This document shows positions 2,067 through 42,512 of a stretch of DNA of 64,000 nucleotides, piece after piece. Positions within the stretch are counted from its first letter, which is position 1. The number at the start of each line of letters is the position of its first letter. The stretch covers positions 5,747 through 69,746 of the forward strand of contig JAPDJH010000018.1 of the NCBI GenBank assembly GCA_029259175.1, written 5' to 3'. The notes under the pieces were generated by a model. That model had not been told where the DNA came from and did no database searches. It was given only the letters and a program-made list of their open reading frames with translations. This stretch comes from Hadesarchaea archaeon (GTDB lineage Archaea > Hadarchaeota > Hadarchaeia > Hadarchaeales > Hadarchaeaceae). The translations under genes and the position numbers were made by a program.

Positions 2067-3281
2067 ATGCTCTGGACCGAGAAGTACGCGCCCAAGCGCT
2101 TATCCGAACTCGTTGGTCAAGACGCTGCCGTGCAGACTATGCGGAAATGGGTAGAAAGCTGGAAAAAAGGAAAGCCGTCCAAAAAGAGCTTGCTGTTATA
2201 TGGGCCTCCAGGCACGGGAAAAACAGCTGCCACCAGAGCTCTGGCAAACGAGACTGGGTGGCAACTAATAGAGATGAACGCCAGCGACAAGCGAACGATG
2301 AGCGCTCTCAGAAAAATAATAGGAGAGGCTTCGAAAACCGGAACGCTGTTGGAGGGGGTCCAAGGGAAAAAATTACTGGTGCTGGACGAGGCCGACAACA
2401 TTCACGGACGCGCTGATCACGGCGGCTATCAGGCTTTGAAAGAGATCATCGGCACCACTACCAACCCTGTAATTCTAATCGCCAACGACCGGTACTCCAT
2501 TCCCGCCGAGATCCAAGCCCAATGCGAGCTGGTAAATTTCCGGCGGCTCCGTCCCGATCAAATCGTCAAACACTTAGAACACATTGCGAAAAACGAAAAA
2601 ATCAAAGTGGATCGAAAAGCCTTAGAGATCATTGCCCGGCGTTCCGACGGAGATATGCGTTCCGCCATCGAGGACTTTCAGACACACGCTCTTGTGTTTC
2701 CACGTTTGACTGCAGAGCAAGTCCTGTTGTTTAAACGCGAACGTGAGAAAAACGTGTTCGATCTGTTGAGAGGGATCTTGTTCGCCAGCAGCGCCGATGT
2801 TGCGCGTTCTGTGCTCTGGTCAGTGGACATAGCTCCCGACGAAGCAATGGCCTGGATAGTGGAAAACGTGCCAAAAGCCATTAGGGATCCGAAAGCGCTG
2901 GCGGCCGTTTACAACACGCTCTCCAGAGCCGACATCTTCTACAGAAGAGCCAACGAGCGCCAGATTTACCGGCTCTGGTCCTACATGAGCGATCTCATGA
3001 GCGCGGGGGTGGCCGTCAAGAAGGGGAGCGAGGTGAAAGCAGCAAAATTCGAGCCTCCATCGTACCTGAAGCGATACTACCAAACAGCAAAAACCAGAAG
3101 AATGCTAAATTCTGTGGCGAGAAAAATCGCGATGGCGTGCCACACCTCTACTCACCGGGTAAAACAGGATATGATCCCTTTGCTTCCAATCTTGATCCAA
3201 AACAAGAAACTGCTCGAGAATCTGACCGCTAATCTGGAGTTAAGCGAGGAAGAGATCAACTTTCTCTCTTCTCTCCGGTGA
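2067..3281 (+). CDS. rfcL: Replication factor C large subunit
   Basis: MLWTEKYAPKRLSELVGQDAAVQTMRKWVESW...LLLYGPPGTGKTA (Walker A) and LVLDEADN (Walker B): an AAA+ clamp-loader signature. The internal ATG at 2067 matches the canonical N-terminus; the ORF track starts at 1914. Confidence 0.85.
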   Translation: MLWTEKYAPKRLSELVGQDAAVQTMRKWVESWKKGKPSKKSLLLYGPPGTGKTAATRALANETGWQLIEMNASDKRTMSALRKIIGEASKTGTLLEGVQGKKLLVLDEADNIHGRADHGGYQALKEIIGTTTNPVILIANDRYSIPAEIQAQCELVNFRRLRPDQIVKHLEHIAKNEKIKVDRKALEIIARRSDGDMRSAIEDFQTHALVFPRLTAEQVLLFKREREKNVFDLLRGILFASSADVARSVLWSVDIAPDEAMAWIVENVPKAIRDPKALAAVYNTLSRADIFYRRANERQIYRLWSYMSDLMSAGVAVKKGSEVKAAKFEPPSYLKRYYQTAKTRRMLNSVARKIAMACHTSTHRVKQDMIPLLPILIQNKKLLENLTANLELSEEEINFLSSLR

Positions 3282-4363
3282 GCGATGGAATGAGAATCCG
3301 GATCTCGAAAAAACTGGAATACGGCAAGCTTGTCACTCCGCTTCCCGACCGTCATGTCCCCGTCTACCGCTGGTTTCAAATGAAAGAATCTTTCTCGGGA
3401 GCTTTAGTCAAGATGTTGCTGGACTTGTGGGGAAGTCCTGACAAACCGCTCCTCGACCCGTTTTGCGGGGCTGGCACGACTTTGCTCGCATGCAAAGAAA
3501 TGGGCGTCAACGGAATCGGATTGGAAACACATCCGTTTTTGTTGTTTGTATCTAGGGCGAAGACTTGGAACTATGATGTTCCCAGCTTAGAAACGTACTT
3601 GTCCAAAGTCCTAGCCTCCCCCACCAAACGCACAAGTGGAGGTGTGCCTCCATTAGTCAAACGCGTATTTCCCTTGTCGATTCAGCGCGAAATCCTTGCT
3701 ATGAAGGAACCGATCAACGCCATCCCCAACGAAAAAATTCGGGATTTCCTAAAAATGGCGCTGCTCCGGACTGCGGTGCGATGTAGTTGGATGAGAAAAG
3801 ATGGTGCTGTGATCAAAACAGCTGCCCGAAAAATACCCGATTTCCGACACGCGCTAGAGTGTCTGGTCGAAGAGATGGTGAGAGATCTCATGAATTTCCC
3901 GCAGAATGAATCAGCAATTCAGCTAATCCGTGCCGACGCGCGCCACATCCCCCTCAAAGACAACAGCGTGGGAGGCGTTATTACTTCTCCACCGTACCTC
4001 TTCAAGTCGGAGTATTTGCGCGAATTCGTTGTTGAAGAATGGGTTGCAGAAGTCGAACACGCCAGCACCCCATCTGTCATCCACACGGAAGATGTCGAAA
4101 AGTATTTTTCCGACATGGAACGGGTGCTTAGCGAACTCTATCGGGTCTGTGTCCCTGGCGCCAAGCTATGTTTTGTCGTCTCCGATGGCGGAACTCGAAA
4201 GGGGGTGGTAGAAGTCGGTCCTACCTTGTGTGAGGTAGCTCACAATATCGGATTCAAAGCGAAGAAGATGGTTATCGTGAACGAGCGCTGGTGTACCACC
4301 CCTTCAAGAAAAAAAGTGGGAATTCTGCGCGAATCTCTGCTGTTTTGGGAAAAGCCCGCATGA
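3278..4363 (+). CDS. SAM-dependent methyltransferase: motif I (DPFCGAGTT) then motif IV-like (TSPPY), with a large insertion between them
   Basis: KPLLDPFCGAGTTLLA near the N-terminus and GGVITSPPY about 175 aa later. This is the Trm11 / N6-N4 amino-methyltransferase architecture. No THUMP domain and no adjacent nuclease. Confidence 0.6.
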   Translation: MSDGMRIRISKKLEYGKLVTPLPDRHVPVYRWFQMKESFSGALVKMLLDLWGSPDKPLLDPFCGAGTTLLACKEMGVNGIGLETHPFLLFVSRAKTWNYDVPSLETYLSKVLASPTKRTSGGVPPLVKRVFPLSIQREILAMKEPINAIPNEKIRDFLKMALLRTAVRCSWMRKDGAVIKTAARKIPDFRHALECLVEEMVRDLMNFPQNESAIQLIRADARHIPLKDNSVGGVITSPPYLFKSEYLREFVVEEWVAEVEHASTPSVIHTEDVEKYFSDMERVLSELYRVCVPGAKLCFVVSDGGTRKGVVEVGPTLCEVAHNIGFKAKKMVIVNERWCTTPSRKKVGILRESLLFWEKPA

Positions 4364-19136: not shown

Positions 19137-20313
19137 GGTTCTCTTCGGAACTCTTGGCCCGCAGATACTTTCGCCCACCCCTCTCTCCCCGAAACCCTCA
19201 TAATTGGATAGAACGAACCTCGGGCGAATGCGTGTCGTCAAGACCATCCGGGCGGAGCTCTGGGCCCTCACCAAGCGCAAGCTTGAGTGCTTGCTCGATC
19301 TTGAGAGCGAGTGGAGGCGCGCCCTTGAGCTCAAACGCACGTACCGGGAGCTCAGGGAGTCGACGCGCCTGCCCTCCTACTACTGCAGGGCCCTGGCGTG
19401 GAAGGTCCGCGGGCGGCAGTCCCCCATCCTGCTCGACCGGGACTCCTTCGAGCTCAAGCCCACCTCCAACCGCCTAGCCCGCTACTTCATCAGCATTCCC
19501 ACGCCCCGCGGGAGGGTGTGGTGCCCCCTCAGGCTCTGGCGCGAGCACGAGCGGTTGCTCGAGTCGGGAGTCAGGATTAGGGACTCGAAGCTGGTCGTGC
19601 GGAAGGGGAGGTTCTTTCTCCACCTCACGGTTGAAAAGAAAATCACGCTCATCCCTCGACCCAACGTGGTCGCGGTCGACCTCGGAGAGCGCTTCCTCGC
19701 GGCGTCCGTGGCGCTTCGCGGGGGAGCAGTGGTCTCAGCGGTCCTGCTCGGGAAGGAGGCGAGAGGGGTGAGGCGGCACCACGCGTGGCTGCGCAGGCGC
19801 CTGGGGGAGCGGAAGCTCCTGCGCGTCATCAGGCGAATCGGGCAGCGGGAGCGGCGCGCGGTCGACCAGATCTGCCACCGGGTCGCGAAGCGCGTGGTCG
19901 AGTTCGCAGTCCGCCACGAGGCCGTCATCGTGATCGGGGATCTGAAGGGGCTGCGCGAGCGCTGCAGGGGGAAGGGGAAGCGCCTGAATCGCATCGTTGG
20001 CTCCATGCCCTACCACCGGCTCAGGCGCTACATCGAGCACAAAGCGGCTTGGTTTGGGATCCCGGTGTACATAGTGAGCGAGGCGCACACGAGCTCCCGC
20101 TGCCACCGCTGTGGGGCCGAGGGATCGAGGCCCAGCCAGGGGCTCTTCAGGTGCAGGGCATGCGGGCTCGAGTACAACGCGGACCTGAACGGTGCCGCAA
20201 ACCTCGGAAAGAGGTTCCTGGAGCAGCGCTCCGGGAACGGGGCCGTGTGGGTTCCGGCCCTAAAGGCGGCCTAGAGCCGCCAACTTCGGAGGTCAAGGCT
20301 TCCGAAGAGAACC
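19137..20313 (+). mobile_element. TnpB-only insertion element bounded by perfect 14-bp terminal inverted repeats and a 9-bp target-site duplication
   Basis: Left repeat GGTTCTCTTCGGAA (19137-19150) is the exact reverse complement of right repeat TTCCGAAGAGAACC (20300-20313). TAACTAGCC sits immediately outside both ends (19128-19136 and 20314-20322). The interior is about 65% GC against about 52% for the flanks. A subterminal hairpin CTTCGGA-ggtcaaggc-TTCCGAAG lies at 20282-20307. Confidence 0.8.
19204..20274 (+). CDS. tnpB: TnpB (IS200/IS605 OrfB-family RuvC-like RNA-guided nuclease)
   Basis: 356 aa. RuvC-I (VVAVDLGE), RuvC-II (VIVIGDLKGL) and a C-terminal zinc finger with RuvC-III (CHRCGAEGSRPSQGLFRCRACGLEYNADLNGAANL). 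No tnpA in the element. Confidence 0.85.
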   Translation: MDRTNLGRMRVVKTIRAELWALTKRKLECLLDLESEWRRALELKRTYRELRESTRLPSYYCRALAWKVRGRQSPILLDRDSFELKPTSNRLARYFISIPTPRGRVWCPLRLWREHERLLESGVRIRDSKLVVRKGRFFLHLTVEKKITLIPRPNVVAVDLGERFLAASVALRGGAVVSAVLLGKEARGVRRHHAWLRRRLGERKLLRVIRRIGQRERRAVDQICHRVAKRVVEFAVRHEAVIVIGDLKGLRERCRGKGKRLNRIVGSMPYHRLRRYIEHKAAWFGIPVYIVSEAHTSSRCHRCGAEGSRPSQGLFRCRACGLEYNADLNGAANLGKRFLEQRSGNGAVWVPALKAA

Positions 20314-32854: not shown

Positions 32855-34054
32855 ATGAAAAAAACAATCGTGGTTGTTCTATTCGGACTTTTGATGACGA
32901 CGGGCGGGGCGCATGCCGACGAATGGCTTCAATACAAATTCGCTCCGACTCGCAACGGATATTCGGAAGCAGGAATGCCAGAAACCCTCCAAATCGCTTG
33001 GAGTTTTAGGAAGGATGGATGGTTCTCATCCCCCGTTGTTGAAAAATTGTTGGTTTTCGTCGGATCGGAAGACGGGAAACTCCGAGCACTTTACGCGTAT
33101 AATGGGAAGACAGCGTGGGAGCTAGAGGTCGGGGCGGAAGTCTATTCTCCCGCGCTTTTCGCAGGGCGCTTGTACTTCGGAGCCGCTGACGGGATGATTT
33201 ACTGCGTGGACGCCGAGACTGGAGAGAATGTATGGAGATACCGCACTGGCGATGCGGTAAGGGCTTCTCCGCTCGTTGTTGACAACCGGGTGATAATCCC
33301 TTCTACTGACAACTGGCTGTACGTGCTCGACGCTTCCACTGGTGGGTTGCTGTGGAAGCTGGATCTCGGAAGCATGAGCACTTCTTCGCCAGCACTGTAC
33401 GAGAACACCCTTTTTGTTCCCACGTGGGCGGGGAAGGTGTATGCATATGACCGCTCCCAATTCGGCCTGCGATGGGTGAAGCAACTGGGAGAGCCGGGTA
33501 TGCTTGAAAACTATGCAATAGTAACCACCCCTGCTGTGGGAGATGGGATTCTCTATGTAGGGTCTAATGATCGGAGAGTTTATGCGTTGACGGTGGATGG
33601 AGAAGTGGTGTGGTCATTCTCCGCAAACGAAAAGCCGAGCGATCCGGTTACGGACAACCAGCGGGTATATTTCGGAACCCGGAGTGGCACGTTCTATGCG
33701 CTAAACGCGGAAACGGGTGAGCTCGTGTGGTCTGTGGACTGTGACGGGCCAATTCTTTCTTCCCCTACGGTTACGGACCAACATGTGGTCTTCGGCACGT
33801 CTAAAGGCAAGTTGTATGTGGTGGACAAACAAAATGGTCAAGTCATTGGAAGCACCAAATTGGATTCGATCATCTCGGAGCCCGTGCTGGCCTACAACAA
33901 GATCTTTGTTGCTGGCGATGGTGTGCTCTACTGCTTGGGGAGCTGGGGGAAAACGGGAGAAACCGGTGCTGAACAGGGTTGGATCTACTTGGGAATTGCC
34001 GCCCTGCTCTTTTTAATCCTTTTAGGGCTAAGCCGTGTGAAACCAGAACGATGA
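32855..34054 (+). CDS. Secreted PQQ-repeat beta-propeller protein with a C-terminal membrane anchor
   Basis: Signal peptide MKKTIVVVLFGLLMTTGGAHA. Repeated ...YA..G...W....G....SP.. PQQ-like blades. C-terminal hydrophobic helix plus a basic tail. Confidence 0.7.
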   Translation: MKKTIVVVLFGLLMTTGGAHADEWLQYKFAPTRNGYSEAGMPETLQIAWSFRKDGWFSSPVVEKLLVFVGSEDGKLRALYAYNGKTAWELEVGAEVYSPALFAGRLYFGAADGMIYCVDAETGENVWRYRTGDAVRASPLVVDNRVIIPSTDNWLYVLDASTGGLLWKLDLGSMSTSSPALYENTLFVPTWAGKVYAYDRSQFGLRWVKQLGEPGMLENYAIVTTPAVGDGILYVGSNDRRVYALTVDGEVVWSFSANEKPSDPVTDNQRVYFGTRSGTFYALNAETGELVWSVDCDGPILSSPTVTDQHVVFGTSKGKLYVVDKQNGQVIGSTKLDSIISEPVLAYNKIFVAGDGVLYCLGSWGKTGETGAEQGWIYLGIAALLFLILLGLSRVKPER

Positions 34055-34066
34055 TAGACTGACGGA

Positions 34067-34101
34067 GCCGCGAGGATTTGAACTCAACCTGCGGGTTTCG
34101 C
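34067..34101 (-). repeat. Degenerate copy of the tRNA-Trp 3' half (att-site remnant)
   Basis: gccgcgaggatttgaactcaacctgcgggtttcgc aligns to 41165-41200, the T-arm to anticodon-stem region of tRNA-Trp. Same orientation, about 75% identity. Does not fold as a tRNA. Confidence 0.55.
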
Positions 34102-34153
34102 TGACCTAGGATAAAGCCGTCAGAGAAAGGTCTACCCGGACTCCATGCAAGTC

Positions 34154-34177
34154 GCAAGGATTTGAGCCGGGTTTTGC
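34154..34177 (-). repeat. Second degenerate copy of the tRNA-Trp T-arm region (att-site remnant)
   Basis: gcaaggatttgagccgggttttgc against gccaggatttgaacccgggtttgc (41168-41191), about 85% identity, same orientation. Confidence 0.55.
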
Positions 34178-34181
34178 TAGC

Positions 34182-34574
34182 TTATCCAAATCTCGGTTTC
34201 AAAATCTGAAAGTAAATGAGGGCGGGAAGGCCCCACGTGATGAACCACCATCCACAAGAGACTAACATGCCCCCCACACTCTCGCCGAACTGCCCACCCA
34301 GCAAGTCCCGCAGCCATTCAGGCTTCGCATAGAGGTACTCCATAAAAAGCATCCCCGTGAGCAAAGAAAGAATTCCCATCCGCTTGGGGGTCAGCTCACT
34401 TAAGAAGAAAACGGCGCAACCAATAAGATTGAACACCACATAGTCTCTCACGACTCCGCTCACCGTTTTCTCTTCAGGAACGGGAATAAGCATCTCCAGC
34501 GGAACGTTAAAAAGCAACGCTGTGAGCATAAAAATTCCTAGAATTGCGAAGAGTTTTTCCGCCGATTTCAACAT
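34182..34574 (-). CDS. Small multi-pass membrane protein
   Basis: 130 aa with about four hydrophobic helices, inside the putative integrated region. Confidence 0.4.
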   Translation of the reverse strand: MLKSAEKLFAILGIFMLTALLFNVPLEMLIPVPEEKTVSGVVRDYVVFNLIGCAVFFLSELTPKRMGILSLLTGMLFMEYLYAKPEWLRDLLGGQFGESVGGMLVSCGWWFITWGLPALIYFQILKPRFG

Positions 34575-34738
34575 TTCTGCCCCCGTTGTTTTTCGATTTT
34601 TGCTCTATTAACCTCACTCTCGTGCTGGTGGCGACTTGGCTCAGTGCCACAGACCTCCCAAACACCTCGGGATTTCTGAATCCGGACCAACAAGCCAGAG
34701 CTGAACTAGCGAAAGTGGGTTCGGCTGTTTCTCGTGAG

Positions 34739-34990
34739 TCATCTGCGATAGGTCTTCTTTCTGTGCCTCACGTACTGGATCTCAACCTCATTCTCACTCT
34801 TTATTTTGTAAATAATTCTGTAATCTCCGGCTCGCAGTTTCCAATATCCCTCCCAATCGCCATGGAGCTTGTGCCCTGCCCGGATATCATCGAAAAGTTC
34901 ATCAATTGCGACTTCTATTCTATAACGAACACTTTTTGGAAGCTTTTTTATGTCTCGCATTGCCCTTCGCGTAAACGTGATTTTTATCAT
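34739..34990 (-). CDS. relE: RelE/ParE-family toxin
   Basis: 83 aa. MIKITFTRRAMRDIKKLPKSVRYRI...GDYRIIYKI...VEIQYVRHRKKTYR is the RelE/StbE fold pattern. Directly downstream of the antitoxin. Confidence 0.75.
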   Translation of the reverse strand: MIKITFTRRAMRDIKKLPKSVRYRIEVAIDELFDDIRAGHKLHGDWEGYWKLRAGDYRIIYKIKSENEVEIQYVRHRKKTYRR

Positions 34991-35009
34991 CCAAAATCAA
35001 CCTGAAATT

Positions 35010-35297
35010 CTATTTGCCTCGTTTCAGCCGTGGGGGCGGGTGACCGAAGACCTCCTCATAGCTGTAAACCCTGCCGGCAGAAGAATCGGCTTGGGCCTCC
35101 CTGAGCGCTCGTAGTGCTCCGGGGTCTGCCATTTCCTCGAGCGTTGCCATTATGCTGTTGTACTCCCGAACTCCGATCACCACTGCCACCGGCTTTCCTT
35201 TTCTACTGACAACTATTTGATTCCCTTTCTCTGCCTGACGGAGAAGCTTCGGGAGATTCCGGTGGGCCTCTTTCACTCCTACAAGGTGTCTAACCAT
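35010..35297 (-). CDS. Phd/YefM-family antitoxin
   Basis: 95 aa. VGVKEAHRNLPKLLRQAEKGNQIVVSRKGKPVAVVIGVREY is the Phd/YefM signature. 19-nt spacing to relE. Confidence 0.7.
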   Translation of the reverse strand: MVRHLVGVKEAHRNLPKLLRQAEKGNQIVVSRKGKPVAVVIGVREYNSIMATLEEMADPGALRALREAQADSSAGRVYSYEEVFGHPPPRLKRGK

Positions 35298-35492
35298 GAA
35301 TACCTCTGTTCAACTATCTGTCGTTCTTGCATTTATAGGTTTGTACCTCGGTTTTAACCTTGAGACATACTTCAAAAAATGATGGGCCGCCAAGATTTGA
35401 ACCCGTATTTACGGAATCTTCAAAAACGGCTCGCGTTCAAAAGTTTGACCTCAAGTGATAAAAGCCGCGGCCGAGAAAGTGTGGTGAGAAAC

Positions 35493-35808
35493 ATGAAGAG
35501 CCCCACCAAAAAAAACACTGGCAGAGATAATCTCCATTTTAAGAAACCACAAGGCTGAACTGAGGGAAAAGTACAGGATCAAAGAAATCGGTGTTTTTGG
35601 CTCCTATGTGCGGGGGGAAGCGGAGCACACGAGCGATGTCGATATCTTGGTCGAATTTGAAGAAAACGCCGATGTTGGACTCATCAAGTTCGTGAAAATT
35701 GAAAACTACCTAAGCGACCTGCTCGGGATCAAGGTGGACTTGGTGGAAAAGAGCGCCCTAAAGCCCAAGATCGGCGCACACGTCGTGCAAGAGGTGATTC
35801 ACGCTTGA
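35493..35808 (+). pseudogene. Minimal nucleotidyltransferase (antitoxin-type) split by a frameshift in an A8 tract
   Basis: ATG at 35493 gives MKSPTKKNTGRDNLHFKKPQG*. The +1 frame from 35515 reads TLAEIISILRNHKAELREKYRIKEIGVFGSYVRGEAEHTSDVDILVEFEE..., carrying the GS..RGE..DxD nucleotidyltransferase motif. The A-run at 35508-35515 is 8 long; 7 A's would give one intact protein of about 104 aa. Confidence 0.6.
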
Positions 35809-35882
35809 AACGGGAAATCGAAGATTATCTCCGCGACATTCTCAACGCAATGGAAAAGCAAGCGAGTTCACCGCAGGGATGA
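35805..35882 (+). pseudogene. HEPN (DUF86) toxin remnant, truncated after 25 codons
   Basis: The TTG at 35805 overlaps the stop of the nucleotidyltransferase (TTGA). LKREIEDYLRDILNAMEKQASSPQG* matches the conserved HEPN/DUF86 N-terminus and then terminates. Confidence 0.5.
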
Positions 35883-35883
35883 G

Positions 35884-36138
35884 TTGCGAACACTCAAAAA
35901 CACAAATTTAAGGAAAGTGTTCCAAGTAATGATGGGAAAACACATGGCCGAATCCCTAACTCTTCAAGATCTCCAAGAAGAGATAATAAAGCTCAAAGCG
36001 GAAATTGAGAAGATAAAACGTGACTTGATTGAAAATCTCGAGCTATCTGATTGGGCAAAGAAACGCTTGAAGAGATATGAAAAAGGGAAGGAGCGGATCG
36101 TGGAGCATGAAGAAGTAAGGAGAGAAATCCTCAAATGA
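35884..36138 (+). CDS. Putative antitoxin (small helical, Lys/Glu-rich) upstream of a RelE-like gene
   Basis: The likely start is the ATG at 35944 (MAESLTLQDLQEEIIKLKAEIEKIKRDL...). Its stop TGA overlaps the ATG of the downstream toxin (ATGA at 36135-36138). Confidence 0.5.
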   Translation: MRTLKNTNLRKVFQVMMGKHMAESLTLQDLQEEIIKLKAEIEKIKRDLIENLELSDWAKKRLKRYEKGKERIVEHEEVRREILK

Positions 36139-36391
36139 GCTTTATCATCAAGTGGACCTCCGGTGCCAGAAAGACATTTTGAGCCTGGACAAAGAAGTCG
36201 CTAGGCGGATTCTGAGAAAAATTGAATCGATAACCGATTCCCCTTTTCGTTTTCTTGAACCGCTTCGGGGCCACCCGTACTACAAGCTCAGAGTCGGAGA
36301 CTACAGGGTGATTTTTGACGTCAACAGGGAGAAGAGGATTCTGATCGTAGTGGTGGTAGGACATCGAAAGAAGATTTATCGAGGACTTTAA
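36135..36391 (+). pseudogene. relE: RelE/ParE-family toxin with a possible N-terminal frameshift (or GTG start at 36152)
   Basis: The ATG at 36135 gives MSFIIKWTSGARKTF*. The +2 frame from the GTG at 36152 continues VDLRCQKDILSLDKEVARRILRKIESITDSPF...GDYRVIFDV...VVVGHRKKIYR. Joined, these give a canonical RelE N-terminus. A single-nucleotide indel lies near 36170. Confidence 0.55.
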
Positions 36392-36446
36392 TCTCGGATC
36401 ACTATCTAAACGCGCCGCTTGGATAGATCACATTAAATTAACAGTT

Positions 36447-36463
36447 CGAGTGGTGGGGCCGCC
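36447..36463 (-). repeat. Direct repeat of the tRNA-Trp 3' terminus (att core)
   Basis: cgagtggtggggccgcc matches cgaatggtggggccgcc at 41154-41170 (16/17). That stretch is the acceptor stem plus CCA of the tRNA at 41158-41291. Confidence 0.65.
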
Positions 36464-36511
36464 TACCATCTGGAATGCTCAACTGTCTCCCCGCAATCAG
36501 TCGGGCCAAGG

Positions 36512-36829
36512 ATGGAAGAAGAGGTCATCGAGGGCATCAGGGACATTCTGGAACGGCTGGCGAGGAACGAGTCCTTCAACCGGCTGGTACGGGAGTACTT
36601 CCGCATCTTGGCCCAGCCAGCGCTGAGGCGCGAACTCAAGGCCTCCAGAGCGTTCGAGGGATTCTCGGACGTCACGTGGTTCGCCCACCGGCTGGGCAGG
36701 TGGCGGACCAAGGGGGCGCGGGAGTGCCTGTCGCTACTCAGGCGGATCCACGAGAGCGTGAGGCGATTCGGCGTCGTCACGACGATGGATGCGCTGATGG
36801 AGGTGATGAGAAAGACAGAGCTGAGATAA
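36512..36829 (+). CDS. Hypothetical helical protein in a GC-rich block
   Basis: 105 aa with a regular helical-looking sequence. Local GC is above 60%, unlike the surroundings. No recognisable motif. Confidence 0.3.
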   Translation: MEEEVIEGIRDILERLARNESFNRLVREYFRILAQPALRRELKASRAFEGFSDVTWFAHRLGRWRTKGARECLSLLRRIHESVRRFGVVTTMDALMEVMRKTELR

Positions 36830-36867
36830 GCGCTGTCAATTTATTACCTAACGCACAATATGAGAAT

Positions 36868-37680
36868 TTGGTGAAGTATGTGAAAGAGAAAATTAGTGGA
36901 CTTTTGAGAAAGTTTGAGAGCATAAAAGCAAACGTTTGGCAGGTTTACGGGACATTGGAAGAACTTGGAAAATTGCGAATCAGAGCCCAACAATCTTTGG
37001 ATAGACACTATCTCATGGACGAGATAGAAAAACTGGAAAAAGCAAAAGTAAAAGAAACCCAGATGATCTTGGAGGAATACCATAGTACCTCTTCAGATGT
37101 TTACAGTCTTCTCAACATGTCTCTTTCTTATTTCTCCCCTCCTAAAACAACAGAGGAGGCAAAGGGGATATTGCGTCGAATCGCGATAGAATGTGATGCC
37201 CTAATAGGTGCCCTAAATGTGTTAATTACGCCGCTCTCGCCTGAAGAGGTTGACCGACTTAATCAATTACGTTCCGAGGTCAAAAAACTATCCAGCAAAC
37301 TTGAGATAGGCTATGAGAAAAACTTGAATGAGGCAATAAACGAGTATGAGAAAGGACATTATTTGGCATCTGCGCTTATCACAGGCAGAGTAATCATCTA
37401 CATTCTAGACCAAGTTGAGGGGGGAACTGAAGAAGAGAAGATTAAATTTCTGCAAGATCACAACGTGATTCCTAGAGGGAGAAAAGATATTAAGGAGTTT
37501 ATAATGAAAGCCAGCCGAAAGGCGCGTCATTTCTTTGCTCATGATATAAAAATTTTTGCCACGGCTTCCGATGCTTTGAGCCTCCTAGGTGATTGTGTAA
37601 AGCTAGTGGAGATACTGGCTAAGTTAAAAAACTCTTCTCAAAAAACAAGCCTGCAATATCGTCACATGTTTAAGAGATAA
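36868..37680 (+). CDS. Hypothetical coiled-coil protein; C-terminus reminiscent of R-M-associated helper domains
   Basis: AT-rich gene starting at a TTG/GTG at 36868-36873. The upstream in-frame extension to 36475 is GC-rich junk. C-terminal KARHFFAHDIKIFATASDALSLL. Immediately upstream of the methyltransferase. Confidence 0.4.
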   Translation: MVKYVKEKISGLLRKFESIKANVWQVYGTLEELGKLRIRAQQSLDRHYLMDEIEKLEKAKVKETQMILEEYHSTSSDVYSLLNMSLSYFSPPKTTEEAKGILRRIAIECDALIGALNVLITPLSPEEVDRLNQLRSEVKKLSSKLEIGYEKNLNEAINEYEKGHYLASALITGRVIIYILDQVEGGTEEEKIKFLQDHNVIPRGRKDIKEFIMKASRKARHFFAHDIKIFATASDALSLLGDCVKLVEILAKLKNSSQKTSLQYRHMFKR

Positions 37681-37693
37681 AAGTGAAAAGAGT

Positions 37694-38704
37694 TTGGACA
37701 TGACAGCAAACAAATTACATTATGAGTGTAAGCATGGCGTGAAGATCTATAACAGTGATGTGCTAGATGTCTACGAAGAGTGGGAGAGCCCAGATGTGAT
37801 AATATCGGATGGACCGTATGGTTTGAATGCTTTCTATGGTGATTGCAAGGTACCAGATGAACTTCCAGCTTGGTATGAACCCCATATAAAAGTTTGGTCT
37901 GAAAAAGCTAGGCCGGGCGCTACTCTATGGTTTTGGAATAGTGAAATAGGATGGGCGTTAGTACATCCTGTTCTAGTGAAGCATGGTTGGACTTATGTTC
38001 GCTTTAATGTCTGGGATAAGAGTATAGCACACGTAGCTGGAAACACCAACACAAAAAAATTGAGGGAGTTCCCCTGCGTCACAGAAGCATGTGTTCAGTA
38101 TGTAAAGGAGGCAAAAATAGGAAATAAAACGCTTAAGGAATGGCTAAGGAGCGAATGGGAAAGAACTGGACTTCCACTCTATGAAGCTAATAAGGCGGCG
38201 GGTGTAGCCAACGCTGCAACTAGAAAGTGGTTGACTAAAGATCATCTTTGGTATACTCCACCACCAGAACAGTTTGAAAAGTTAGTAGAATACGCTAACG
38301 CTCATGGTAGGTCTACAGGAAGACCATATTTTTCGATAGACGGCAAGAAGCCAATTACAAAAGAAGAATATGCGAGATTGTTGCCTAAATTCCATTGTAA
38401 AGTGGGAATAACCAACGTCTGGAAAGAGCCACCACTTCATGGTCCTGAGAGGATAAAAATAAAAAAAGGAGGAAAGTCTGCACATCTAAATCAAAAACCA
38501 TTAAAGCTTATGAGACTCATTATTGAAGCCTCTTCAGATAGAGGCGATGTAATTTGGGAACCATTTGGTGGCCTATGTTCGGCCACTGTGGCTGCCCATC
38601 AATTAGGTCGTAAATGTTATGCTGCTGAGATAGAAAAAGAATTTTTCGAAATGGCTATTAATCGTCTAAAATGTATATGTTCGGAGGGGTCTTTGCGTGT
38701 CTGA
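37694..38704 (+). CDS. DNA methyltransferase, beta-class order (motif IV-like at the N-terminus, motif I at the C-terminus)
   Basis: N-terminal VIISDGPYG, a DPPY-like catalytic motif with Pro-to-Gly substitution. C-terminal VIWEPFGGLCSATVAAHQLGRKCYAAEIE, the FxGxG SAM-binding motif. An 8-nt overlap with the downstream nuclease gene. Confidence 0.6.
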   Translation: MDMTANKLHYECKHGVKIYNSDVLDVYEEWESPDVIISDGPYGLNAFYGDCKVPDELPAWYEPHIKVWSEKARPGATLWFWNSEIGWALVHPVLVKHGWTYVRFNVWDKSIAHVAGNTNTKKLREFPCVTEACVQYVKEAKIGNKTLKEWLRSEWERTGLPLYEANKAAGVANAATRKWLTKDHLWYTPPPEQFEKLVEYANAHGRSTGRPYFSIDGKKPITKEEYARLLPKFHCKVGITNVWKEPPLHGPERIKIKKGGKSAHLNQKPLKLMRLIIEASSDRGDVIWEPFGGLCSATVAAHQLGRKCYAAEIEKEFFEMAINRLKCICSEGSLRV

Positions 38705-39506
38705 GAAAGAGCCCCAACTTAGGGAACCGTCCAAAGAATGGCCCCACTACGAGTTGTGGATGAGAACCAGAAATTTGCTAAAAGAATTGCCTACGTATTT
38801 TAAAAGCACATTGAATATAACATCTGCCGTTAATGTAACTGAAATATATGCCTTCGGCACAGCTCTTAGCTATACGATTGAGGAAGAGGTTGTGAACACT
38901 CTCAACAAGGAAAAAGAACTGCTAGATCCTGATGGAAAATATTGTGAATACTCCTTTACTAGACAGGCACAATCATTCCCCGATGTGTTATTTCTAAATT
39001 CAGAAAAAGGTGACATAATAATGGGAATAGAGCTAAAATCGTGGTATCTCTTGGCGAAAGAGGGTGAACCGAGTTTTCGTTATAAAGTCACGCCTAGCGC
39101 GTGCGCCTTACAAGACTTGTTAGTTGTGGTACCTTGGGCCCTATCCAACGTGGTAACCGGGAATCCTATAGTTTTTGAACCATTCGTAATATCTGCTAGA
39201 TATGCGGCGGAATATCGAAATTATTGGTGGAAGCACTTGAGAAAGGCAGAGGGCAACACGGATATTTCCTCGCCCGACGGAGTCAGTTCTTATCCTTCTA
39301 GCCGTGAAAGGATAGACGATGAACCTGCTTATGATCCTGGTAGAAACTTTGGAAGATTAGCAAGGACAGAAATTATGGATAAATGGGTAAAGAGATGTAA
39401 AAAGGAAAAACTACTCGGAATAGAGATAGAAAAATGGATTGAATTCTTCAAAACGGGTAAAATCAGACATAAGGAAATTTGTGAAAAACGGCTGAAGTCA
39501 TCATAG
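38697..39506 (+). CDS. PD-(D/E)XK restriction endonuclease candidate
   Basis: FPDVLFLNSEKGDIIMGIELKSWY carries PD...(E)LK. Translationally coupled to the methyltransferase. AT-rich. Confidence 0.55.
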   Translation: MSEKEPQLREPSKEWPHYELWMRTRNLLKELPTYFKSTLNITSAVNVTEIYAFGTALSYTIEEEVVNTLNKEKELLDPDGKYCEYSFTRQAQSFPDVLFLNSEKGDIIMGIELKSWYLLAKEGEPSFRYKVTPSACALQDLLVVVPWALSNVVTGNPIVFEPFVISARYAAEYRNYWWKHLRKAEGNTDISSPDGVSSYPSSRERIDDEPAYDPGRNFGRLARTEIMDKWVKRCKKEKLLGIEIEKWIEFFKTGKIRHKEICEKRLKSS

Positions 39507-39515
39507 CACCTGCTC

Positions 39516-40961
39516 TTAGGGGCCCCCTGTTTCAGTCTCCTTTGTCCAACATTGTACTTTCATGACAATTAGGACAAGAATTATGCTAGCGATTGAGAGG
39601 ATAGATATCGAAGGACCAATTATGAAACCAATCCCACCATAAAAAAATATGAAAAATAAGCCGATCAACCCGGATGTACTCACCACGCCGATCATATTAC
39701 GGAACTGTCTATTTTCCATAAATTGTATCCCGCAGATACAACATCTAATTCCTCTTTCGGCAAAAAATATCAAAGACATCATAACAAAGATTGCCCAAAT
39801 ATTTTTGTCCAAGTTTTGTAGAAGAGCCAAAATTATATAAAGACCAGAAGTGATGGTTGCAACATAAATAAAAGTGAGAATGCCTAGAAGAGCGGAAGAT
39901 ATAGATTTTGATGTAAGTTTATACTGAAAAATTTGCAAGATTGCGCGCTTTGCTGTTTCCTTTTCTTTTGGGAAGAAAATTGATAAAACCACATAAAAGA
40001 GAAGTAAAAATACAAACCAAACCAAAATGTTAGTGATGAGGACCTTGAAAGACGATAAGAAAGTAAACTCGCTTAGAAAAACATTTTCGTAACTCGTTTT
40101 ACCTGCGGTTACTTTAACTACCTTCTCGGCTCGATATCCAATCATTCCCCCCGATTCAATGATTATTTTGTATTCGCCTTCACCCAGATTGAAAACGCAC
40201 GCACCGTTCTCATCAGTCAAGAATGGTGCCGAACTCCGCGTTCTCACCACACGTACTCGTGCGTTTGGCACAGGTTCGTTTTCCTTTCTAACACTGATGA
40301 TTAACTTGCCGGTTCTCTTTACGTACCGAGTGGTAACATCATGTGCTGTGCCAGAGTCGTCAACGGCGTATACGAAAAAGAGTTGTTCTCCTCCTCCATT
40401 TTCATTCTCTGGACGCTCGTAAAATGCAGGATCGTTAATAATGCCTCTCTTCCCAGTTGCTGGATTAGTTTTGCTTGGGTCAACATGTATCCAATCTCCA
40501 TTAATTTTTACCTCAGCCCAAGCATGATCCAGACCCAAATTGTACACAACCCGGGCATTATCTATGCCTGCTGTTTTTGCCAATTCTACGAACAGCCTTG
40601 CAAACTCTTCACATGCGCCGTGTTTGAAGAACATTATCCATTGTGGATGCATAAGTCGAAGGTACGTGACAGGGATCCTATCTAATAGAAAATATAGCGG
40701 CGGTATGGAGCTATGCGGACGCTTGTAAATGATTTTCCCCTCAAAATTTCTATCCTCCCACTCAATAATCGCATTGATAATGGACAAATGATTCGAATTC
40801 TTGCTACCGATTTCAGTCCCGACTTTTTGTATTTCCGCCTCTCCCAATATTTGGACGACAAAGTAGGGAAGCCAGAAGGTAGATAGAACGGTTAGTAATA
40901 GAAGCGCTGTCGCTAGATAGGTCTTGAACTTTTTCCACTTTCTTTCTGTGTTTGATGGCAT
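39516..40961 (-). CDS. Membrane-anchored transglutaminase-like cysteine protease-fold protein
   Basis: GACEEFARLFVELAKTAGI...DHAWAEV...GDWIHVDPS is a Cys-His-Asp transglutaminase-like core. An N-terminal TM, a beta-sandwich region, then more than six TM helices. Confidence 0.6.
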   Translation of the reverse strand: MPSNTERKWKKFKTYLATALLLLTVLSTFWLPYFVVQILGEAEIQKVGTEIGSKNSNHLSIINAIIEWEDRNFEGKIIYKRPHSSIPPLYFLLDRIPVTYLRLMHPQWIMFFKHGACEEFARLFVELAKTAGIDNARVVYNLGLDHAWAEVKINGDWIHVDPSKTNPATGKRGIINDPAFYERPENENGGGEQLFFVYAVDDSGTAHDVTTRYVKRTGKLIISVRKENEPVPNARVRVVRTRSSAPFLTDENGACVFNLGEGEYKIIIESGGMIGYRAEKVVKVTAGKTSYENVFLSEFTFLSSFKVLITNILVWFVFLLLFYVVLSIFFPKEKETAKRAILQIFQYKLTSKSISSALLGILTFIYVATITSGLYIILALLQNLDKNIWAIFVMMSLIFFAERGIRCCICGIQFMENRQFRNMIGVVSTSGLIGLFFIFFYGGIGFIIGPSISILSIASIILVLIVMKVQCWTKETETGGP

Positions 40962-41157
40962 GTCCCACCAATTGTATCGTTTTTCATTTAGTTAGAAGAA
41001 TGTAACTCCGCAATTATCACGAAGCATTTTTAGAATGCAACGTGTTCTCTCATTTTTATCAACGATGATCCTCCACCAGCCTGCTCATCAGCTCGTCCAC
41101 CACTGTACACGGCATCTTCGTAATTCAGCGACACGGTAGACCATTGAGCAATCCGAA

Positions 41158-41291
41158 TGGTGGGGCCGCCAGGATTTGAACCCGGGTTTGCGGGTCTCAC
41201 CGCGCCAGTGGGTCATCATCTCCACATCAGCAGACCCACAATCTCTCGGCCCACTGGAGCCCGCCGTGATACCAGGCTACACTACGGCCCC
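41158..41291 (-). tRNA. trnW: tRNA-Trp(CCA) with a 58-nt intron and encoded CCA
   Basis: Reverse complement reads GGGGCCG...GCGGG-CTCCAG[intron]A-CCCGC...CCGGGTTCAAATCCTGG-CGGCCCC-A-CCA. The acceptor pairs 7/7, the T-loop is TTCAAAT, and the anticodon is CCA. The intron (41196-41253) sits at the canonical 37/38 position. Confidence 0.85.
41196..41253 (-). ncRNA. tRNA-Trp intron carrying box C/D-like motifs
   Basis: The intron contains CUGA and AUGAUGA (41213-41219) flanked by a GUGGG/CCCAC stem, resembling the box C/D guide found in archaeal tRNA-Trp introns. Confidence 0.5.
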
Positions 41292-41327: not shown

Positions 41328-42512
41328 TCACCAGCTCGGGCCGAAGATGAAGAGAACAGCGAAGATGATGACGAAAACTCCAACCCCCATGATTCTCCAC
41401 AGGATGTGGGGCTTCGGCTTCTCCTCGATCTCGTAGTAGTGCTCCTGCTCCATCATGCCCATCATGCCTTCAGTAGCAACCAGACCCACTGCTCCCTCGG
41501 GGGGTGCGAAGATCTCATATGGTTTTTGTTCCTTGGTCTTCTGCCTCCACCAGTAGTAGATGGCCCCTATAATCGACCACGGCACCGCAATCACGAAGAA
41601 GAGGTATGGAATGAGACCGAGCGAGCTGATCGCCGGTACGGTGTAGCTGGTGCTCACTTCAGCATTGTACATGTTCATGTTCCACAGGATGATAGCTATA
41701 CAAGAGTAGACCGTGAAAGCGTTCCAGTAGGGGTTCGCCGCGCTGACCAGATACAGTCCGCTGGTGCGGTGTTTGGTGATGGGCCAGAAAAGATTGTTCC
41801 CCAAGTGCCCGAAAGAGTCCAGCACGATGTGCATGAACCAGCCAAGAAAGATGACGGCGCCCAGCTGCCACATTCCGGAAATCAGCCAGCCGAGCAGGGC
41901 GAAAACTATTCCGAGGGTCAGACTGTGGGCCCACTGGCGGTGGAAAGGTATGAAAACAACCTCAACTGCTCCGTCCTTTCGTTTCAGGAACCCGAACGAT
42001 GGCCCGCTGAAACCTTTGATCTCGGTGGGTCTGCCATACGTCTCTATCAGTTTGGGTTTGAACTTGGCCACGCCAACCGCCTTTTCGGCTGGGGGTTCGG
42101 TGCCAAACACTGGCACGCCGGACATGGTCACGTGGGGGCCCACGCGCACCTCGACCTGTTTCTGAGCCTTGTTGAAGTTGATTGCGTACGACTGCCAGAG
42201 ATCTGGTCCTATCTTCAGGGTGTGGAGCTTGACCTTCCGCATCTGCCCGGGCTGGAGATTGGCTGCCGCATCGATTTCGGCCGCTATTTTTTCTGCGATT
42301 TCTTGCGGGCGCATGTCGTACGGATTAGGATCGATTACTGTGTGGTGTTGCTCCATGTAAACGGCAAATTTGAAGTCCAGCGTGTCGGGGAGCAATCCGA
42401 AAATTCCGCCGAGCACGATGAGCCACCAGTCCTCCAGCAGGGCGCCCACCATCAGACTCTTGAAAAACGTCGCGACCGTGATTCCCATTATGAAGTGAGT
42501 CACCCCGCGCAT
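41328..42512 (-). CDS. Membrane-bound metal-dependent hydrolase-like protein (DUF457/YdjM-like core) with a large insertion
   Basis: Multi-pass membrane protein with His-rich motifs (HIVLDSFGH, HRQWAHS). Confidence 0.4.
   Translation of the reverse strand: MRGVTHFIMGITVATFFKSLMVGALLEDWWLIVLGGIFGLLPDTLDFKFAVYMEQHHTVIDPNPYDMRPQEIAEKIAAEIDAAANLQPGQMRKVKLHTLKIGPDLWQSYAINFNKAQKQVEVRVGPHVTMSGVPVFGTEPPAEKAVGVAKFKPKLIETYGRPTEIKGFSGPSFGFLKRKDGAVEVVFIPFHRQWAHSLTLGIVFALLGWLISGMWQLGAVIFLGWFMHIVLDSFGHLGNNLFWPITKHRTSGLYLVSAANPYWNAFTVYSCIAIILWNMNMYNAEVSTSYTVPAISSLGLIPYLFFVIAVPWSIIGAIYYWWRQKTKEQKPYEIFAPPEGAVGLVATEGMMGMMEQEHYYEIEEKPKPHILWRIMGVGVFVIIFAVLFIFGPSW

Follow-up and report, generated by a model that had tools for sequence, protein, structure and literature searches.

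A tRNA-Trp gene as a probable integration hotspot in a Hadesarchaea archaeon, with toxin-antitoxin and restriction-modification cassettes that differ between strains

The only tRNA gene that Rfam finds in a 64,000-nucleotide stretch of a Hadesarchaea archaeon contig (JAPDJH010000018.1, positions 5,747 to 69,746; hereafter the window, in whose numbering all coordinates are given unless a contig is named) is a tRNA-Trp gene. Within the 7.1 kb between it and the gene of a PQQ-repeat protein lie four copies of its 3' part, all in the orientation of the tRNA, which we call A, B, C and D from the PQQ gene inwards. We consider it probable that integrating DNA uses the 3' end of this gene as its chromosomal attachment site (attB), which makes it an integration hotspot, and that the copies are remnants of at least four integrations. 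The best reading of the locus is that it is still turning over, and that cassettes with toxin-antitoxin (TA) and restriction-modification (R-M) genes are still swapped between strains. An earlier, sequence-only reading of the window had proposed serial integration at this gene, with three degenerate copies of the tRNA end delimiting immobilised cargo. That interpretation was right in kind and is partly supported, with three details corrected below: the number of copies and the boundaries they set, the immobilisation, and the simple stacking of inserts.

The tRNA-Trp gene (41158-41291, minus strand, anticodon CCA), the proposed attB site, is intact and matches Rfam RF00005 with 49.6 bits at 41161-41291. 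Its CCA end is encoded in the genome (41158-41160). ARAGORN in default mode called no tRNA in the window, missing the gene because of a 62-nt intron located after the anticodon loop, and Rfam was used in its place. The part of the gene on which the following argument turns is a 13-nt recombination core, GGCGGCCCCACCA, at 41158-41170 (minus strand), which comprises the last 2 nt of the T-stem, the 3' strand of the acceptor, the discriminator base and CCA. A guide RNA is known from the introns of euryarchaeal pre-tRNA-Trp, and the box C/D-like motifs within the present intron, with a weak match to Rfam sR3 (19.8 bits; 41195-41260, minus strand), resemble it.

We scanned both strands of the whole window by local alignment with the 53-nt 3' part of the tRNA as query and 30 block-shuffled windows as the null. 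Copy C (35381-35412, minus strand), which the sequence-only reading missed, is the best of the four, with a score of 44 and a BLAST match of 21/22 at 35384-35405 (E = 1e-4). The three copies that had been reported are real. Copy D (36447-36463, minus strand; score 29) matches at 16 of 17 positions, with an exact 13-mer at 36451-36463; what survives is the 13-nt core with a similar 4-nt flank, and its left half is not tRNA-like. A MAFFT block matching that left side at 9/10 was discarded as indistinguishable from chance (2-6/21 ungapped). Copies B (34151-34177, minus strand) and A (34060-34101, minus strand), each with a score of 30, are diverged and lie about 50 bp apart. Copy B has kept its left, T-arm half while its right half is destroyed. 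Copy A, the outermost and probably the oldest, begins 6 nt past the stop codon of the PQQ gene and has a 6-7-nt insertion in its left half; a BLAST search with the tRNA and its flank matched 16/17 inside it, at 34067-34083. None of the four gives any tRNA score, even at E ≤ 10, as the sequence-only reading had held for its three. The best score outside the copies, on either strand, was 22, so the repeat is not one dispersed over the window. In the shuffled windows the maximum averaged 25 and never exceeded 32, and about 0.3 windows per 64 kb are expected to score 28 or more. The confinement of four copies to one interval, in a single orientation, is far beyond chance.

The copies separate blocks of inserted DNA whose composition differs from that of the host chromosome (GC 0.51 in the genome and 0.51-0.52 in the flanks). 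GC is 0.48 in block 1 (34182-35380, minus strand), 0.45 in block 2 (35413-36446), 0.61 in block 3a (36464-36829, plus strand) and 0.41 in block 3b (36830-41157). At third codon positions it is 0.85 in block 3a and 0.34-0.41 in block 3b, compared with 0.58-0.73 in the host flanks. The compositional contrasts seen earlier are thereby confirmed, but the boundaries differ because there are four internal copies and not three: copy C splits in two what had been taken for a single toxin-antitoxin cluster.

Comparison within the species shows how these copies behave. We retrieved contigs that encode exactly the window's Phd protein (block 1) and its YdjM-family membrane protein (41328-42512, minus strand; Pfam YdjM 6e-13), the inner flank of the island and our comparative anchor. 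The window type, haplotype W, occurs in L003, at 99.97% identity, and SRR22064146 holds three separate contigs of it; its junctions recur in the independent assemblies L003, L015 and L021. Haplotype V occurs in at least nine assemblies (L004-6, L010, L014, L016-19). On the tRNA side it follows the window at 99.5-99.7% identity as far as 41155, immediately beyond the CCA end, and it does so once more outward from 35405, where homology resumes in L004/5/6/14/16-19. Between these points, window positions 35406-41157 are replaced by a 753-bp MazE-PIN cassette alone, with a 48-nt repeat of the tRNA 3' part behind it, CGGTGAGATCCGCGAACCCGGGTTCAAATCCTGGCGGCCC-ATCA (L004 12110-12157), which includes the last 8 nt of the intron and whose left part matches the tRNA at 30 of 32 positions. 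Haplotype divergence therefore starts right after the CCA (41155-41158), with the insert directly past an intact tRNA 3' end; the tRNA-Trp exons are identical between W and V, and the intron differs by a 2-nt indel. The right part of copy C (TGGCGGCCC-ATCA and the flank) is common to both haplotypes, which also share two lesions in it that would disable a tRNA, a deletion of 1 nt and a C>T change. The two versions differ on the left only, where that of W is specific to block 2 and more diverged. With its right part shared and its left part different, copy C is a recombination hybrid.

A third arrangement, haplotype X, came from three further samples (L076-78), found via homologs of the haplotype V PIN toxin. 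Its contigs match the ParE1 and membrane-protein genes of the window at 95-96%, so the locus is the same, in a relative that lies at about the species boundary. Samples in which the three types occur include ERZ25515786 / SRR22064146 for W, SRR22064147, ERZ25515360 and ERZ25515408 for V, and ERZ584659 for X. In haplotype X the MazE-PIN cassette, which together with its left att half is 95.8% identical over 800 bp, is preceded not by the tRNA gene but by an internal att copy, GAGACCGGCAA-TCAAGCTCAAATCTC|GGCGGCCCCACCA, upstream of which lies an additional ParE/DUF7557 cassette. The distal att of the MazE-PIN cassette breaks off after ...GAACCCGG, where it runs directly into the 3' end of ParE1. 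The arrangement is direct evidence that the newer of two cassettes comes in next to the tRNA, displacing the older one outward, and that rearrangements end inside att copies. Across the three haplotypes the differences start and stop in the tRNA end or in att copies, and the MazE-PIN cassette occupies two positions in the array. Short-read contigs (L007-9) stop within the tRNA 3' part. Among the Logan assemblies L007-L009, L021 and L015, breaks fall in that part (41169/41182) and also at 36362 and 35979 inside block 2; the former fit strain mixtures at a polymorphic att repeat, and the breaks in block 2 are unexplained.

The two halves of a copy can differ in how well they are preserved. Since gapped semi-global identities overstate similarity for degenerate copies, we counted ungapped identities by hand over 21 nt to the left and 13 nt to the right of the T-stem/acceptor boundary (CCT|GGCGGCCCCACCA). 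Copy C matches the tRNA at 20/21 on the left in haplotype V and 17/21 in haplotype W, and in both at 11/13 on the right (one deletion, one substitution). In copy D the right half is perfect (13/13) and the left unrecognisable (about 2-6/21); the internal copy of haplotype X again has 13/13 on the right, beside 10/21 on the left. The core GGCGGCCCCACCA is thus perfect in both of these, next to sequence that is unrelated or diverged. Copy B shows the reverse (left 18/21, right 4/13), and copy A has 13/21 and 9/13. That one half can be perfect while the other is unrecognisable points to exchange at one fixed point and not to uniform decay, and the half-by-half pattern locates it within the 13-nt core (41158-41170) or at the core's border. 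It also explains why a 17-mer ending in the CCA had been so prominent in the sequence-only reading. Under Campbell-type insertion, an internal copy would owe its left half to the incoming element and its right half to the former end of the tRNA gene.

We infer the order of the integration events as follows. Haplotypes V and X share the MazE-PIN cassette though they are 4-5% apart, whereas W and V differ by 0.3-0.5%; it follows that W is a recent replacement and that the MazE-PIN arrangement predates it. On the simplest path, blocks 3 and 2 would have been inserted at the tRNA, after which their distal att would have recombined with the old copy C and so deleted the MazE-PIN cassette, a deletion that yields exactly the hybrid copy C observed. 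Decayed genes occur in blocks 2 and 3, and neither block is seen without the other; they were probably acquired in one piece, already assembled in another array. Repeated integration at the tRNA 3' end with outward displacement of older att copies, as proposed from the sequence, is accordingly supported by the difference between W and V, by haplotype X and by the related genome L001 described below, but the array is not a simple stack. Blocks 2 and 3, seen only together, have replaced an older cassette, which calls for integration plus att-by-att deletion or for acquisition en bloc. The view that the elements are immobilised is doubtful, for the locus is polymorphic among genomes that are 0.3-0.5% apart, a sign of recent turnover. 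Neither of the two outcomes that the sequence-only reading had named as contrary to it, unchanged gene content in relatives with no empty-site variant and a dispersed repeat, was observed.

More distant relatives offer a candidate for the empty site. The outer flank of the island is the gene of a PQQ-repeat beta-propeller protein (32855-34054, plus strand; Pfam PQQ_2 3e-45). A search with the YdjM anchor protein led to two genomes, L001 and L002, and the order TctA-YdjM-tRNA is conserved in both and in the metagenomic contig L072. In L001 (72% amino acid identity) TctA, YdjM and tRNA-Trp are followed by a spacer of about 250 bp and then by the stop codon of a PQQ gene in the same convergent orientation, and no att duplicate was found between tRNA-Trp and this gene. 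This is the arrangement that comparison with relatives had been expected to reveal, and it is good but not perfect evidence of an empty site: orthology of the two PQQ genes is plausible but not proven. In L002 (66%, Candidatus Hadarchaeum) and L072 (57-64%) housekeeping genes follow tRNA-Trp. A metagenome scan with a 21-mer gave 53 loci, nearly all of them ordinary tRNA-Trp genes of various archaea; only L072 was syntenic, and none of the 53 had a duplicated att. Within 5 kb after its tRNA-Trp, L072 (4300-9546) carries genes for a tRNA-splicing endonuclease and a tryptophanyl/tyrosyl-type tRNA synthetase, that is, enzymes for processing a tRNA-Trp with an intron and, provided that the synthetase is TrpRS, for charging it. 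The record of L001 (JASEJC010000003.1) is labelled Candidatus Hodarchaeaceae (Asgard). Given the 72% identity of TctA and YdjM and the synteny that it shares with the window and Candidatus Hadarchaeum, this label is probably a mix-up of Had- and Hod-.

Taken together, these data suggest the following course of events. A circular element with a tRNA-like attP would recombine inside the last 13 nt of the gene (GGCGGCCCCACCA), which would restore the tRNA gene and leave behind, at the distal border of the insert, a copy of the gene's 3' part. Re-use of the site would displace older inserts and their att copies outward, and recombination of att with att would delete the DNA between. Later, ordinary deletions would trim the inserts to genes that are costly to lose, namely TA pairs and the R-M system. 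The inserts would have begun as larger self-mobile elements, and the exchanges would have been catalysed by a tyrosine-type integrase that is now absent. A distal direct repeat, an unoccupied site in relatives and foreign composition, all features by which elements that target tRNA genes are recognised, are present at the locus; an integrase is not.

The cargo agrees with the gene content read from the sequence earlier, a TA cluster and a block of R-M and membrane-protein genes, as confirmed by Pfam, PADLOC and NCBIfam. Of its three TA modules two have decayed; beside them it comprises a type II R-M system, a transglutaminase-like membrane protein and the truncated gene of a regulator. Small toxin and antitoxin genes lie side by side, as in type II TA modules, in the pairs ParE/Phd, ParE/RelB-like and MazE/PIN; the nucleotidyltransferase MNT is without a partner. 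Block 1, present in all haplotypes and partly deleted in X, encodes on the minus strand a Phd/YefM antitoxin (35010-35297; Pfam PhdYeFM 7.5e-14), the ParE toxin ParE1 (34739-34990; Pfam ParE_toxin 1.7e-12) and a 130-aa membrane protein (34182-34574). Block 2 holds decayed TA modules on the plus strand. A frameshift in an A8 run has deprived the MNT nucleotidyltransferase (35503-35808; Pfam NTP_transf_2 1e-19) of its start, and where its partner toxin would be expected there is a 25-codon stub (35805-35882) that matches no family and could not be confirmed as a HEPN/DUF86 remnant. A RelB-like antitoxin follows (35884-36138; NCBIfam RelB-like 6e-4, a weak match) and then a ParE toxin with a 5' frameshift (36152-36391; Pfam ParE_toxin 4e-12), which regains full-length profile coverage once the frameshift is repaired.

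Block 3a consists of little more than a 105-aa open reading frame (ORF; 36512-36829, plus strand), the C-terminal half of a winged-helix regulator whose 5' half is missing at the junction with copy D. A word-based homolog search with this ORF gave no matches. An exhaustive phmmer search gave two weak ones: residues 11-105 align to residues 111-201 of P0002, a 201-aa protein with an ArsR/MarR-type winged helix-turn-helix at residues 16-60, at 41% identity, and the other match, P0001, is a repetitive protein that we judged irrelevant. The abrupt switch in GC from 0.61 to 0.41, at 36829/36830, coincides exactly with the regulator's stop codon. Block 3b, absent from the MazE-PIN haplotype, opens with a 270-aa orphan (36868-37680, plus strand) directly upstream of the R-M genes, which is unmatched in Pfam, PHROGs, PADLOC, NCBIfam and the PDB sequences. 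Near its C-terminus is an R-x4-H motif (ARHFFAH) that may be HEPN-like, and gene callers join the ORF to an out-of-frame stretch, giving a 401-aa product. For the 105-aa and 130-aa orphans, too, PHROGs, NCBIfam and PADLOC gave nothing. An N4/N6 DNA methyltransferase (MTase; 37694-38704, plus strand; Pfam N6_N4_Mtase 3e-21, PADLOC MTase_II 3e-23) and a type II restriction endonuclease (REase; 38697-39506, plus strand; PADLOC REase_II 2.4e-10), whose genes overlap, form the adjacent pair characteristic of a type II R-M system, and the transglutaminase-like membrane protein (39516-40961, minus strand; Pfam Transglut_core 3e-12) closes the block.

The R-M pair recurs at 83% identity in another archaeon (L081-L084), in an unrelated, transposase-rich region between transposase genes and RadA/NurA fragments and without its neighbours in the window, which marks it as independently mobile cargo and gives no pointer to a parent element. 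An Xer-like integrase lies 3 kb from that homologous pair; as a clue to the enzyme it was uninformative, the region being unrelated to the tRNA-Trp locus. A second N4/N6 DNA methyltransferase gene of the window (3278-4363, plus strand; Pfam 3e-16) lies far from the island.

We looked for an integrase with Pfam on all ORFs of at least 220 aa in the window, with precomputed Pfam annotation for neighbours, with PHROGs, NCBIfam and PADLOC, and by tblastn and phmmer with an Xer-type integrase query. In agreement with the sequence-only reading, which had detected no integrase gene or fragment, there were no matches to Phage_integrase, SSV-type or serine-recombinase families in the ORFs of the island, in the cassettes of the other haplotypes or in the 64-kb window. 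The enzyme is consequently one that we only infer. Unannotated gaps in the island are all below 200 bp, with annotated genes reaching to within 200 bp of each att copy, and the ORFs that cross the tRNA end, copy C and copy D are 45-59 aa long and match no family. Remnants of an SSV-type split integrase, with Int(N) and Int(C) halves running through att copies, were rejected because there is no room for them and there are no matches. An att 26-mer found no match in IMG/VR, nor did the REase and the transglutaminase-like protein have relatives there. About 14 kb from the island, a 356-aa ORF (19204-20274, plus strand) encodes a TnpB-type protein of an IS200/IS605-like element (Cas12f1-like TNB PF07282, 1.1e-19).

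Several of these results weigh against serial integration by an element with its own integrase. In none of the five cassettes (blocks 1-3, MazE-PIN and ParE/DUF7557) was a trace of the enzyme found, and searches revealed neither a free element nor an excised circle or attP. At just 0.75 kb, the MazE-PIN cassette nonetheless keeps a nearly pristine left att half, which is odd for a heavily decayed element. Blocks 2 and 3 have never been seen apart, and a search for block 2 without block 3 found none. No att copy marks the passage from block 3a to block 3b at 36830, a junction that the att model leaves unexplained. Lastly, the PQQ gene of L001 is only 39% identical to that of the window, and synteny ends there.

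Natively small, integrase-less cassettes, each with its own tRNA-like half-site and moved by a recombinase encoded elsewhere, in an array like that of integrons or of cis-mobilisable elements (CIMEs) and specialised in addiction and defence modules, are a possibility that we hold to be unlikely. All 5 of 5 cassettes lack an integrase trace, the genes of the MazE-PIN cassette are intact, and that cassette occurs with its half-site at two array positions in lineages about 4-5% apart. It and blocks 1-3 fit the structural definition of a CIME, being flanked by att and lacking integrase and mobilisation genes; an autonomous partner element for cis-mobilisation was not found. Every cassette has a TA or R-M module, a bias reported for archaeal integron cassettes (10.1101/2022.02.06.479319), although such enrichment is equally expected if addiction modules are simply lost last. 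Unlike an integron platform, the array has no recombinase gene beside it. An integron proper was rejected: no IntI adjoins the array, no spacer has attC-type R-box pairs (RYYYAAC...GTTRRRY), and the separators are tRNA-derived direct repeats. The truncated and frameshifted genes and the mosaic composition of blocks 2 and 3 are as decay predicts, and the regulator gene that abuts copy D has lost its 5' part. PIN homologs in other genomes, at 71% and 54%, lie in contexts without att flanks, and the 71% case is a homolog of the MazE-PIN pair. A specific version, in which single-module TA or defence cassettes are anchored at the tRNA and exchanged at its last 13 nt by a recombinase elsewhere in the genome or on a visiting element, we would put at slightly lower still.

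Host homologous recombination, with the tRNA-like repeats as substrates and no site-specific enzyme, seems improbable to us. It would generate the haplotypes by Campbell-type insertion via about 13-48 nt, by deletion between direct repeats or by allele replacement via the flanks; any crossover in the repeats or in the 99.5%-identical flanks could produce the hybrid copy C and the cassette replacement, and the search for an integrase found none. It does not account for at least four independent junctions (D, the internal copy of X, B and the two versions of C) at one position of the repeat, and for homologous recombination the 13 nt of identity that D keeps make a very short substrate. Restoration of the gene upon insertion exactly at a tRNA 3' end is, moreover, the hallmark of integrase events (PMC7253208). 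That the fragments are relics of a former tandem tRNA gene cluster, or chance or assembly artefacts unconnected to the inserted DNA, is highly improbable and already contradicted by the haplotype comparison: the T-arm is conserved, so that any decayed tRNA gene can give partial matches, but only 3' parts and never 5' halves are found, all copies are specific to tRNA-Trp (that of haplotype V including 8 nt of the intron end), they coincide with haplotype breakpoints and composition boundaries, they score above shuffled controls, and the junctions recur in independent assemblies from different samples.

Integration at tRNA genes and the capture of DNA that goes with it have long been known as drivers of archaeal genomes, mostly from cultivated Sulfolobales, Thermococcales, haloarchaea and Thaumarchaeota, and She and colleagues reportedly described 'gene capture' elements at tRNA genes of Sulfolobus and Pyrococcus. 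The 3' ends of archaeal tRNA genes are the usual att sites of integrative plasmids and viruses, and a single-nucleotide deletion in an old attR has been described (PMC7253208, PMC6563490); crenarchaeal att sites measure 29-69 bp, with a median of 45 (PMC6563490). The pT26-2/TKV family carries SSV-type 'suicidal' integrases (Badel et al. 2020, PMC7253208). Our locus resembles the gene-capture and pT26-2/TKV elements in its insertion at a tRNA 3' end with the gene restored, its distal direct repeat, its foreign composition, its decay after capture and the single-nucleotide deletion in an old copy, and its best-preserved copy, at 48 nt, is within the crenarchaeal range. Unlike them, it has no Int(N) or Int(C) halves through att copies and no integrase of any type, and its inserts, at 0.75-4.7 kb, are far smaller than elements of plasmid or virus size.

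In streptococci, CIMEs are att-flanked elements without a recombinase that can be mobilised in cis. Arrays arising from re-use of one att site are known for archaeal and bacterial tyrosine-recombinase elements (PMC6563490; PMC7253208). As in such arrays, the present inserts are serial at one tRNA gene, att-flanked and without recombination genes, with att copies between them, inner copies that are hybrids of element and host, and loss or replacement by att-by-att recombination. They differ in that no intact partner element is found here and that the cargo consists almost wholly of addiction and defence modules. Short serial cassettes, a TA and R-M bias and content that varies among close strains recall integron cassette arrays, including archaeal ones (Ghaly et al., 10.1101/2022.02.06.479319), from which the locus is set apart by the lack of IntI, attI and attC hairpins, by tRNA-derived separators and by cassette genes in both orientations. 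A literature search found no description of such elements in a Hadarchaeota-like lineage.

The tRNA-Trp locus is thus a clear natural example of a known process and not a new kind of system. It adds a documented case in a Hadarchaeota-like lineage that is known from metagenomes alone, in which three natural haplotypes document insertion on the tRNA side, att-by-att replacement and a deletion ending in an att copy, with the crossover within a 13-nt core. The genes that survive in such islands are almost exclusively those for addiction and defence. If cassettes anchored at the tRNA were indeed exchanged as single modules, the array would be an exchangeable store of TA and R-M genes for an uncultivated archaeal lineage; and if they are natively integrase-less and moved in trans, it would be a platform for gene exchange that resembles an integron but is based on a tRNA gene, a finding of wider interest.

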